This document shows, in pieces, positions 20,382-55,495 of a DNA stretch of 64,000 nucleotides. The DNA lies in NCBI GenBank assembly GCA_029856045.1, contig JAHQWG010000047.1, forward strand, positions 96,001-160,000. Reading direction: 5' to 3'. The translations under genes were made by a program, and so were the position numbers. The first letter of the stretch is position 1, and the number at the start of each line of letters is the position of its first letter. The notes under the pieces were generated by a model. That model was given only the letters and a program-made list of their open reading frames with translations, was not told the origin of the DNA and searched no databases. The stretch comes from Promethearchaeia archaeon (GTDB lineage: Archaea; Asgardarchaeota; Lokiarchaeia; Sigyniarchaeales; SOKP01).

Positions 20382-20765
20382 ATGGCAAGGTCGCAAAAAA
20401 GAAGTAATAGAAAATATACTGGAAAAAAGTATAAACATTTTGGAAAAAAGAGAAAAAGGGAGATTGCAAGACCTCCAATCGAAACAACAATTGGAACTGA
20501 GAAAAAGAAAAAACAAAGAACTCTTGGTGGGAAATATAAATTAAAATTATTTTCAAGCTCCTTTTGCATTCTAACAGACCCTTTAAGTAAAAAAACTGAA
20601 AAGACGAAAATTCTCAGATTTGAAGAAAATCCCGCCTCAAAAGAGCTTTCTCGAAGACATATTATAACTAAAGGAGCAATAATTCATACTGAAAAGGGAT
20701 TAGCCAAAATAACAAGTCGCCCTGGTCAAGATGGCATGATCAATGCTGTTCTTATAAAAGAATAA
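20382..20765 (+). CDS. rps8e: 30S ribosomal protein S8e
   Basis: TGKK...KRKREI; NPA...RRHIITKGAII; TSRPGQDG. Confidence 0.96.
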   Translation: MARSQKRSNRKYTGKKYKHFGKKRKREIARPPIETTIGTEKKKKQRTLGGKYKLKLFSSSFCILTDPLSKKTEKTKILRFEENPASKELSRRHIITKGAIIHTEKGLAKITSRPGQDGMINAVLIKE

Positions 20766-21140
20766 TCAGTCTGTTTCTATTTTTATATTTTTCACAGTTG
20801 CAGATCGTCCCTTAATAATTTTAGTATCAGTAGAATCACAAAATTTACATTTAAACAATAACAATCCCGTTAATGAATCTGTTTCTTTAAAACTAATTGA
20901 AGATATTTTACCGCATTTATTACATTGAATTTCTGCAGGTGTGACTTGCATGTTTAGTTTGGCTCCCTCTGCAATAGTTCCTGTTGTCGCTATTTTAAAT
21001 GATTGTTTTAAAAGTTCAGGAACAATAAGTGTCAATTCTCCGATTTCTAAAAATACTTCTGTAATTCTAATAGCATTATATTTTAAAGCTGTGTTTAAGG
21101 CAGTTTGATAAATTTGGGATGCAAAAGCGAACTCGTGTAT
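20766..21140 (-). CDS. hypA: Hydrogenase nickel metallochaperone HypA, starting at ATA
   Basis: (M)HEFAFA...EIGELT...CNKC...CKFC; the MHE motif is ATA CAC GAG at 21140; SD GGGGAGAG upstream; the ORF track's TTG start at 21035 loses the conserved N-terminus. Confidence 0.9.
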   Translation of the reverse strand: MHEFAFASQIYQTALNTALKYNAIRITEVFLEIGELTLIVPELLKQSFKIATTGTIAEGAKLNMQVTPAEIQCNKCGKISSISFKETDSLTGLLLFKCKFCDSTDTKIIKGRSATVKNIKIETD

Positions 21141-21160
21141 TTTTTTCTCTCCCCGATCAA

Positions 21161-21451
21161 TTAACTTTTTATTTTCCTTATTTGTTTTGCGATTTCAAAT
21201 AACATTTTTCTTTTCTTTTTGCCTTTAGAATCAATGAGAATACGCCCGGGGTTGTCCCACCATGTCTTTGGATACTTTGGAGTATTTTCAATCCTATATT
21301 CATAGCCTAACGCATTCACAGCTTTTTCTATATCTTCCAAAGTTATCTTTTCAATAGCAAGATTTTTAGGTAACCTCCGACCTTGACTGATTGTTCGATT
21401 TTTATCAAAATACTGGGGCCAAAAAATAAGATACGGCGTTCTCTTTCTCAT
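21161..21451 (-). CDS. srp19: Signal recognition particle 19 kDa protein
   Basis: IFWPQYFD...GRRLPK...YPKTWW...GRILI. Confidence 0.94.
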   Translation of the reverse strand: MRKRTPYLIFWPQYFDKNRTISQGRRLPKNLAIEKITLEDIEKAVNALGYEYRIENTPKYPKTWWDNPGRILIDSKGKKKRKMLFEIAKQIRKIKS

Positions 21452-33678: not shown

Positions 33679-34089
33679 TTATTTTTCCAAGACTTTTAAT
33701 TCTGAAATATACATTAAAGGATATTCCAATTCATTAATCCATTTGATTTTGGCTTTAACTTCAATATTTTTAAATTGAACTACGAGATCAGCTTCGATTG
33801 TTTTACCAGAAATTTCATCGTAATCATATTCATTTTCTTTTATGCCTTTCAAATTTTCTCTTCTGAGGTTAATTTTAACGGATTTTACATAAGGTTGGCA
33901 TGATATTGCTTGTTCTATACCATTTTCAATTGATTTAATGACATTTTCATTTGTATTAATAGGAATTCCACATAAGATATGATAAAGAGCTCCTAATTTA
34001 ATACCTGTTTCAAAAGTTGCCCTCTCTTTATCCTTGAGATCTTTTGTAAAATGAATTTCTAACTTTTCTTCAGTATTATTCTTTTTCAA
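33679..34089 (-). CDS. mptD: Archaeal dihydroneopterin aldolase
   Basis: ERATFETGIKLGALYH, QPYV and YPLMYI; overlaps mptG by 14 nt. Confidence 0.85.
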   Translation of the reverse strand: MKKNNTEEKLEIHFTKDLKDKERATFETGIKLGALYHILCGIPINTNENVIKSIENGIEQAISCQPYVKSVKINLRRENLKGIKENEYDYDEISGKTIEADLVVQFKNIEVKAKIKWINELEYPLMYISELKVLEK

Positions 34090-35086
34090 TTTTTATTTCT
34101 GCTCCAGTATTATTAGGTTTTGCAATTAAAACAGTACCTCCGACATCTTTAATGAATTCTTTACATTTAGGTTCTAAAATTTTTGCAGACTCATCATTTT
34201 CAGTAATTGCGACTACGCATGGTCCAAAAGAGGACATTCCATAAGCTTTTACTCCTTCTGCTTCTAAAAATTTCATTAATTTTTTAACAAATGGGTGTTG
34301 TAATTCTATTTCGATTTTCTTGAATCCAATTTTTTGGATTCGTTTTATTCCTTGTCCAAAACAATCTAAATCATTTTTAATTATTCCTGGTAAAACTTTC
34401 ATAATAATTTGATGTGAAACTTCATTGACTTCTTCTCGGTTAATTGGCGTATATTCTTGAAAGATATTTACTTCCTCCTGGTCATGAGCCCCTTGTTTTA
34501 CGTTAGGAATAATTATTATAAATCTCCAATTTTCGGGAATGGGGTATCTAATAAGAGTTAATGCAGGATCTGTTGATAAAGAAGCTGAAGAAGGCAGGTA
34601 AGTTGCTTTCTCTTTTTCATTACCAAAATCGTGCCCAGCATCCAAAATGAAGCCTCCTTGTTCAAAACCCCTCCATCCAATTCCAGACGTACCTCCTCTC
34701 CCAACTATTTTAGTAATCTTTTCTACGGGTAAATCTACCCCCTCTAATTTAGCTATTGCTAAACCGATTGCTAAGCTTAATTGGGTTTTTGATCCAATTC
34801 CTAAATGTTCCGGATAATATTCCTTAATTATGAAATGGTACTTTATATTTTTAACATTAAGAGCATTTGTTATAGCCTCAGTTTTTTCTTTAATGGTTGT
34901 TAAAAATCCATCATGAGGTTGATCAAATTCAATTTTTAACTCATCAGAATTATTGGAAGCCTCTATCACTATATTAGGGGATTCTAACATAAGACCAATC
35001 CCCCCATCAATTCTGCCAGTATACCCATTCTCATCAATTAAGGAGAAGTGCACTCTACACGGGGTTTTTATAGTGATTTTGATTAT
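34076..35086 (-). CDS. mptG: Beta-ribofuranosylaminobenzene 5'-phosphate (RFA-P) synthase, GHMP family; ATA/ATC start
   Basis: IKTPCRVHFSLID..GRIDGGIG; HLGIGSKTQ, GRGGTSGIG and GMSSFGP; the conserved IKTPxR lies upstream of the GTG at 35053; GGTGA SD precedes ATA 35086 / ATC 35083. Confidence 0.88.
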   Translation of the reverse strand: MIKITIKTPCRVHFSLIDENGYTGRIDGGIGLMLESPNIVIEASNNSDELKIEFDQPHDGFLTTIKEKTEAITNALNVKNIKYHFIIKEYYPEHLGIGSKTQLSLAIGLAIAKLEGVDLPVEKITKIVGRGGTSGIGWRGFEQGGFILDAGHDFGNEKEKATYLPSSASLSTDPALTLIRYPIPENWRFIIIIPNVKQGAHDQEEVNIFQEYTPINREEVNEVSHQIIMKVLPGIIKNDLDCFGQGIKRIQKIGFKKIEIELQHPFVKKLMKFLEAEGVKAYGMSSFGPCVVAITENDESAKILEPKCKEFIKDVGGTVLIAKPNNTGAEIKIEKE

Positions 35087-54630: not shown

Positions 54631-55032
54631 ATTCCATATGGATATTGTCCAAACTGTCGTCAAAACGTGCTTCTTGTTCGCGAAGATATTGATTGGATGT
54701 TAGCATTTTTTCTAATTTGTTTCACTTGTGGTTGTGGACTATTTATATATCTCATAATTTATTATAGTAAACCAGAAAATAGATGTGTGCACTGTTATTC
54801 TATAGTTCCAGGTTTACAGCAACCTACTCAACCTTATGAGGTTCATCCTCCTTCTCAGAAAGTTTCTCAGCCCTATGAAGTTCAAACACCTCAAGAAGAT
54901 ATTTATGAAATATCACAAAATCAAAATATTACACCTGAAAAAGAGATTAGAACCAACTATTGTCCCTATTGTGGAGAGAAAATTGAGGAAAATGCACGTT
55001 TTTGTGCTGGTTGCGGTGCAAAAATTATTTAA
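54631..55032 (+). CDS. LITAF-like zinc-knuckle membrane protein with C-terminal zinc ribbon (paralog 2), ATT start
   Basis: (M)PYGYCPNCRQNV-hydrophobic-ENRCVHC; CPYCG...CAGCG; first CxxC lies upstream of the GTG at 54667; in-frame TAA at 54622; GGGTG upstream. Confidence 0.75.
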   Translation: MPYGYCPNCRQNVLLVREDIDWMLAFFLICFTCGCGLFIYLIIYYSKPENRCVHCYSIVPGLQQPTQPYEVHPPSQKVSQPYEVQTPQEDIYEISQNQNITPEKEIRTNYCPYCGEKIEENARFCAGCGAKII

Positions 55033-55120: not shown

Positions 55121-55495
55121 ATTACTTACGGATATTGTGATCAATGTAAGCAAAACGTGCTCCTTGCAAGAGAAGAGATTGACTTGTGTCTAGCAATAAT
55201 TTTATTAATTTTTACAGCTGGAATTGGACTAATAATTTATCTTATGATTTATTACTCACGAAGCGAGAATAGGTGCATTCACTGTAATTCAATTGTATCG
55301 TCACAATCACCTGGTTACATTCCTCAACCTAAATCTAGTCAATTACAAACCACTGAAGTGGAATATAATCAAGAAGATCAAAATCAAGTTGTTGCATCTC
55401 AAGAACCTGTAAAACAGGAATACTGTCAATTCTGTGGAGAAGAACTTGAAAAAGGCGCCCAATTTTGCAGGGAATGTGGCACTAAAGTTCCTTAA
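55121..55495 (+). CDS. LITAF-like zinc-knuckle membrane protein with C-terminal zinc ribbon (paralog 3), ATT start
   Basis: (M)TYGYCDQCKQNV-hydrophobic-ENRCIHC; CQFCG...CRECG; in-frame TGA at 55100; GAGG SD at 55109. Confidence 0.75.
   Translation: MTYGYCDQCKQNVLLAREEIDLCLAIILLIFTAGIGLIIYLMIYYSRSENRCIHCNSIVSSQSPGYIPQPKSSQLQTTEVEYNQEDQNQVVASQEPVKQEYCQFCGEELEKGAQFCRECGTKVP

Follow-up and report, generated by a model that had tools for sequence, protein, structure and literature searches.

A conserved ATA as the probable start codon of the nickel metallochaperone gene hypA in an Asgard archaeon

Near-cognate translation starts have been described in bacteria for infC and pcnB (AUU) of E. coli and for infC, ccpN and citZ (AUA) and cvfC1 (AUU) of S. 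aureus; in the latter, AUA and AUU starts located behind extended Shine-Dalgarno sites yield about 10% of the AUG output (PMC13009471). Reviews of archaeal initiation give AUG, GUG and UUG only (PMC7531240), and our literature search revealed no systematic report of ATA or ATT starts in Asgard archaea, the sole mention being a 'rare ATT start codon' of the tubulin gene AtubA (PMC13394414). The nickel metallochaperone HypA is a ready test case for such initiation, since its chemistry pins the start to one codon. The nickel site is made up of the amine at the N-terminus, of His2 with its amide and its side chain, and of Glu3 (PMC7055735; see also PMC13202556). In the HypA-HypB complex of T. kodakarensis the site is formed by the amine, His2 and His98 (PMC7055735). 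The insertion of one residue into HypA (MLHE) alters the nickel site and impairs function (PMC7055735).

The window analysed here, a stretch of 64,000 nucleotides (G000:C51:96001-160000) from a genome of 3.34 Mb with 29.4% GC, carries on its minus strand a hypA gene (20766-21140) of 124 codons counted from an ATA triplet and closed by the stop TGA at 20768-20766. The original prediction described a Shine-Dalgarno site, an A-run and ATA CAC GAG on this strand, lacking any in-frame ATG, GTG or TTG back to the nearest stop, and the sequence confirms this layout. The Shine-Dalgarno site GGGGAGAG (21154-21147), with its GGAG core at 21152-21149, 8 bases 5' of the ATA, is followed by an A-rich spacer (AAAAAA, 21146-21141), the ATA (21140-21138), CAC (21137-21135), GAG (21134-21132), and then TTC GCT. 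No ATG, GTG or TTG was found in frame between the ATA and the TGA at 21197-21195, which bounds the frame on its 5' side. The first canonical codon is a TTG at 21035-21033, 35 codons inside the HypA domain, and it is from here that the public HypA call for the genus starts, an 89-residue form without the nickel site.

The product of the 124-codon frame matched the family profile PF01155 with an E value of 1e-25 (90.3 bits, the cut-off being 28.9; profile positions 2-112 aligned to residues 2-121) and the hypA model TIGR00100 with 91.9 bits, above the cut-off of 88.1 (profile positions 1-114 aligned to residues 1-122). It contains two CxxC zinc motifs, which are CNKC (residue 73) and CKFC (residue 98). 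The ATA aligned with Met1 of the MHE nickel site, and the codons for His2, the sole histidine of this protein, and for Glu3 follow it directly. hypA is single-copy in the genome, which also encodes [NiFe] hydrogenase large subunits, HypD (477 bits) and HypC (101 bits), so that HypA has clients to serve.

On the 5' side, the SRP19 gene (21161-21451, minus strand) ends with a TAA at 21163-21161, 20 bases before the ATA, and because of this short distance SRP19 and hypA are probably co-transcribed. On the other side, the gene of ribosomal protein S8e (20382-20765, plus strand) is convergent with hypA. The order SRP19-hypA-S8e is common to relatives. The stop codons of S8e and hypA adjoin with 0 bases between them (20763-20768), and the same arrangement was seen in a metagenomic relative (L099).

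The HypA proteins of the five genus genomes share 74-94% identity, and the codon at the start position was ATA in all five of them; a canonical hypA start is absent in four. A TAA stands 1-2 codons before the ATA in G001 and an in-frame stop about 4 codons 5' of it in G002, and such stops make an extension of the protein impossible in most genus members. Taken together, the requirement of the nickel site for a free amine and the stops bounding the frame fix the hypA start to one codon. The claim that HypA must begin at the ATA is thus supported, both by the chemistry of the N-terminal amine, His2 and Glu3 (PMC7055735) and by the in-frame stops.

A start further upstream, either at the ATT 21161 or by way of a frameshift at the end of SRP19 that would generate a fusion protein, might make use of the 18 codons that are open 5' of the ATA in G000 and of an in-frame ATG 8 codons 5' of the ATA in G003. 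The in-frame stops shortly before the ATA in G001 and G002 speak against it, the Shine-Dalgarno site is spaced for the ATA, and an extension would abolish the free amine beside His2 needed by the nickel site, which together render an upstream start exceedingly unlikely. The ATG of G003 (L006), the most distant member of the genus, lies 24 bases before the ATA and 3 bases after the SRP19 stop; re-initiation at it could yield an N-terminally extended HypA in G003 alone.

Within the genus, dN/dS of the whole hypA gene was 0.10-0.14, and codons 2-35 gave values of 0.05-0.16; distant members were separated by a dS of more than 1, that is, synonymous sites were saturated. This purifying selection acts 5' of any canonical start, which indicates that codons 2-35 are translated. 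The same values bear on a start at TTG 21035. Such a start was chosen by gene callers, and TTG is a common start in G000, but the resulting 89-residue protein would lack about a third of the Pfam domain, including a strongly constrained segment, as well as the His2 and Glu3 ligands. No Shine-Dalgarno site was found 5' of the TTG, and this codon is not kept in the genus: the first canonical codon is the TTG at +35 in G000 and, in other members, an ATG at +49 or a GVG-type GTG at +28. As these positions differ, no truncated start is shared across the genus, and we regard translation from the TTG as highly unlikely.

A single A to G change would restore an ATG, and the triplet might accordingly be a sequencing or assembly error, or the gene a recent pseudogene. 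The ATA is, however, found in five separately assembled genus genomes, and both the truncated hypA call and the gene order recur in a sixth, public assembly. A pseudogene is contradicted by intact frames with a dN/dS of about 0.1 and by the presence of a single hypA copy in a genome with hydrogenases, HypC and HypD. Tabulation of the codon for the MHE methionine among orthologues had been put forward as the test of a recent pseudogene, and it gave ATA rather than ATG in all genus members, under purifying selection. With five independent assemblies in agreement, the probability of either an error or a pseudogene is close to negligible. In effect, the data rule out an assembly error, a pseudogene, a truncated protein and an upstream start, and the ATA remains the start that we favour.

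Beyond the genus, the hypA start position reads ATG in most other genera, a state shared by about 20 genomes of the same family and order. The hypA start of G018 is ATT and that of its congener ATG. In two genomes of genus g16 (L027 and L028), which belongs to another family and has 57-64% GC at the locus, the start is an ACG located 7 bases after a GGTGA; the latter holds the stop of the upstream gene, which is not SRP19 there but a Mut7-C-like gene, and no canonical codon was found in the 50 open codons 5' of the ACG. A metagenomic sister lineage with 84% identity and the same gene order has a TTG behind GGAGGA. The occurrence of ATA, ATT, ACG and TTG at one codon indicates that hypA has left ATG at least four times. 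Among the best 120 public HypA relatives, 113 begin with M-H-E, four with L-H-E and one with V-H-E.

The Shine-Dalgarno sites differed between these classes. Within the family, a score of at least 7 at a distance of 7-11 bases was obtained for six of six ATA or ATT hypA genes versus one of 18 ATG orthologues, a contrast which is suggestive, as it corresponds to two or three evolutionary events and the genus genomes are non-independent. The GGAG core of the hypA site itself comprises four bases only. An AT pressure special to the genus was considered as a cause and rejected: the whole family shows 24-35% GC at the locus, yet most of its members keep ATG.

The 3' end of the 16S rRNA of G000 reads GGATCACCTCC. 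Shine-Dalgarno sites precede 24% of the confident ATG starts in this genome versus 4.7% of random sites, and their core peaks 8-13 bases 5' of the start; the hypA core, at 8 bases, lies at a working distance. Internal ATA codons were assessed in mptG, where the 126 positions compared with orthologues showed isoleucine in 53 cases, valine in 22, leucine in 20 and methionine in one. Isoleucine, valine and leucine opposite internal ATA indicate that the genetic code is unchanged. The initiator tRNA, encoded at G000:C27:220560-220656 (minus strand), is canonical: it has an A1:U72 pair, GGG/CCC in the anticodon stem and CAU as its anticodon. Its gene is split by an intron after position 37. Because of this intron, the tRNA was located by a half-pattern search; simple patterns written for an uninterrupted anticodon arm of the initiator gave no match in G000, and aragorn, which reported 17-25 tRNAs, listed no CAU tRNA. 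The small number of tRNAs recovered by aragorn and Rfam suggests that many tRNA genes of G000 are probably interrupted or unusual. Rfam placed 25 tRNAs above its cut-off, and a tRNA-SeC (anticodon tca) appears in the aragorn output.

In mitochondria AUA is a methionine codon and a start, and in plant organelles ACG starts are edited to AUG. With these precedents in mind, the hypA codon might not be read as written, ATA standing for methionine, the mRNA being edited to AUG (A to I, or C to U for ACG), or a special initiator tRNA being used. We consider this very improbable: methionine stands opposite internal ATA only once in 126 positions, no single change of the code and no single type of editing covers the ATT, ATC and ACG starts as well, and the only initiator-like tRNA found has the anticodon CAU. 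To our knowledge, such mRNA editing is not known in archaea.

AUA might alternatively be used for initiation by the elongator Ile-tRNA, leading to an Ile-His-Glu N-terminus. Residue 1 contributes its amine and backbone to the nickel site, but not the methionine side chain, and Ile1 might therefore be tolerated. Bacteria and eukaryotes, on the other hand, read their non-AUG starts with the initiator tRNA, which gives methionine, and aIF2 binds the initiator tRNA specifically, so that this possibility appears unlikely. Non-AUG starts have likewise been treated as read by the initiator tRNA in PMC13009471.

We therefore favour, with a probability of about 0.86, the reading that hypA encodes a functional nickel metallochaperone of 124 residues, the translation of which starts at a near-cognate AUA. 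The GGAG core would pair with the 3' end of the 16S rRNA and thereby place the small ribosomal subunit, and we infer that the ordinary initiator Met-tRNA with its CAU anticodon is accepted on AUA despite the third-position mismatch. The protein would then begin with Met-His-Glu, fit for the nickel site. Ribosomes finishing SRP19 may feed the hypA start 20 bases further on. By analogy with S. aureus, the weak AUA codon would be used with lower efficiency and probably keeps HypA output low. Judged from the sequence, hypA appears to provide a clean case of an Asgard gene with near-cognate initiation, resolved to a single codon. Operon coupling was also evaluated as a general need of near-cognate starts and rejected: 7 of 23 validated starts lie within 40 bases of the end of an upstream gene on the same strand versus 21% of canonical starts, which is not significantly different in a gene set that is incomplete (SRP19 is missing from it).

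Three further genes of the window had been proposed to need AUA, AUU or AUC starts. For mptG, the beta-RFA-P synthase gene (34076-35083, minus strand; NF040726, 356.7 bits), the near-cognate start was retained, but the alignment to ATG orthologues assigned it to an ATC at 35083-35081, behind GGTGA, and not to the neighbouring ATA. This start is ATC in four genus genomes and ATG (TTG in one genus) in most other genera examined; a GTG that G000 has further downstream corresponds to GTA in the other genus members. The other two genes, predicted as 'LITAF-like', encode a zinc-ribbon protein (54631-55032, plus strand), whose N-terminal CPNC knuckle lies 5' of the first canonical codon, and a paralogous zinc-ribbon protein (55121-55495, plus strand). 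ATT starts at 54631 and 55121, respectively, are probable, whereas the LITAF label had to be dropped, as Pfam matches were to zinc-ribbon families only.

The extent of such starts in the genome was assessed in the 5' regions of coding-like frames (10 codons or more before the first canonical one) by scoring the presence of Shine-Dalgarno sites for each codon. In these 5' regions, a site precedes 39 of 385 ATA codons (p 1.7e-7), 37 of 490 ATT codons (p 2e-4) and 6 of 25 ACG codons (p 4e-4), against a background of 4.0% for all other codons. This enrichment of ATA, ATT and ACG amounts to 2-6 times the level of other codons, with an excess of about 47 genes. Deep inside genes no Shine-Dalgarno bias was observed, the values being 7.9% for ATA, 6.9% for ATT and 7.0% for all codons.

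A Pfam scan of 40 candidates revealed 19 in which the domain begins 5' of the first canonical codon; the remaining 21 were uninformative, as they matched no family, gave a coiled coil or had their domain 3' of the canonical start. The Pfam-backed proteins are two Ras-family GTPases, an SDR, ETF alpha, AOR, a PFL-like protein, POR gamma, a TFB zinc ribbon, a response regulator, an E2-like enzyme, Roadblock, ERCC4, an AAA ATPase, an XPD-type helicase, PAS, a hydantoinase, DUF7065, a zinc ribbon and ATP synthase subunit D. Among the individual loci are an E2-like ubiquitin-conjugating enzyme (G000:C47:34001, minus strand; ATT), Roadblock (C27:116360, plus strand; ACG), two Ras-family GTPases (C35:99888, ATT, and C40:8600, ATA, both minus strand) and TFB (C53:11207, plus strand; ATC). 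An enoyl-CoA hydratase-like frame at G000:C29:28629-29138 (L095) covers profile positions 76-199 only and may be a fragment or part of a split gene. The 5' enrichment, the 19 Pfam domains and the 89-residue hypA call agree with the proposal of a relaxed, Shine-Dalgarno-guided choice of start codons that gene callers truncate. The trait had been tied to this one genome; it is instead family-wide, since near-cognate starts were found in other genomes of the family.

ATP synthase subunit D (in G000 at C41:21878-22510, plus strand, with an ATT start; compared loci L102-L131) has a near-cognate start in 18 of 22 family genomes, namely ATT in 12, ATA in three, ATC in two and ACG in one, always behind an AGGTG-type site. 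In nine of these 18 no canonical codon is present in frame upstream, and in seven others the only one is a GTG or TTG inside the Shine-Dalgarno site, three codons upstream. The start is ATG in genomes of neighbouring families.

The gene of initiation factor aIF1 (in G000 at C27:190754-191113, plus strand; compared loci L132-L161) is itself affected. Between the in-frame stop and the zinc knuckle, 15 genomes of the family that lie outside the genus have no canonical codon, their start being ATT or ATC preceded by AAGGTTGTGA. The genus itself has a conserved ATA (C27:190766 in G000), which is the sole candidate in G003, while the other four genomes also have a GTG four codons upstream; two genera of the next family have ATA starts at the position aligned with this ATA. 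Some genomes contain two aIF1 copies. The aIF1 protein of G000 looks ordinary and is close to that of M. jannaschii (110 bits), and an overall comparison of the two revealed no obvious lesion that would explain a relaxed stringency.

hypA would then be one case of a family-wide tolerance for ATA, ATT, ATC and ACG starts behind Shine-Dalgarno sites, which extends to the aIF1 gene. By analogy with bacterial infC and eukaryotic eIF1, aIF1 may be a proofreading factor with a weak start of its own, and feedback through this start may set the level of tolerance. On balance we lean towards the view that this Loki-type Asgard family runs a relaxed start stringency, in which AUA, AUU, AUC and ACG serve as regular starts when placed by a Shine-Dalgarno site. 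They would be long-lived in genes of core function (those for ATP synthase subunit D, HypA, mptG, TFB and small GTPases), at a level set by aIF1, whose own gene starts with ATT, ATC or ATA. Weak starts might act as an expression dial, for instance for subunit stoichiometry or for chaperones of low abundance.

Gene callers limited to ATG, GTG and TTG cut or miss such proteins, among them HypA, Ras-family GTPases, the E2-like enzyme, Roadblock, TFB and ATP synthase subunit D, and the affected proteins are of the kinds used in arguments on eukaryotic origins. A lineage near the eukaryotes that routinely uses AUA, AUU, AUC and ACG together with eukaryote-type factors would make the evolution of start proofreading by aIF1 and eIF1 directly testable.

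Compared with the HypAs of H. pylori, E. coli, T. kodakarensis and M. maripaludis (PMC7055735, PMC13202556), the protein described here is similar in its full-length domain, His2-Glu3, the two CxxC motifs and its hydrogenase and Hyp partners. It differs in the ATA codon of residue 1 and, as His2 is its only histidine, in having no counterpart of the His98 ligand of T. kodakarensis. The AtubA tubulin of a Lokiarchaeia genome (PMC13394414) comes from the same class of organism and shows the same signs: its proposed ATT start restores a truncated N-terminal strand and is plausibly spaced from a ribosome-binding site. That case is a single remark in a methods section and concerns one gene, without conservation, a genome-wide count or other codons.

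The starts of the bacterial infC type are likewise AUA or AUU behind a strong or extended Shine-Dalgarno site and conserved between species; they are read by the ordinary initiator tRNA and yield about a tenth of the AUG output. The starts predicted here from sequence differ in that they occur in an archaeon with the eukaryote-type factors aIF1, aIF1A and aIF2 rather than IF3, in about 50 or more genes per genome as opposed to a handful, and include ACG. With eukaryotic near-cognate initiation at CUG, ACG, AUA, AUU and further codons, which eIF1 keeps in check (PMC5666671, PMC7075259), they share a set of codons with one mismatch that includes ACG, the homologous proofreading factors aIF1 and eIF1, and a factor gene with a poor start of its own. 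Unlike the eukaryotic starts, those of the Asgard family appear to be placed by Shine-Dalgarno sites and not by scanning from a cap, and they would be the main starts of ordinary genes rather than starts of upstream frames or isoforms.
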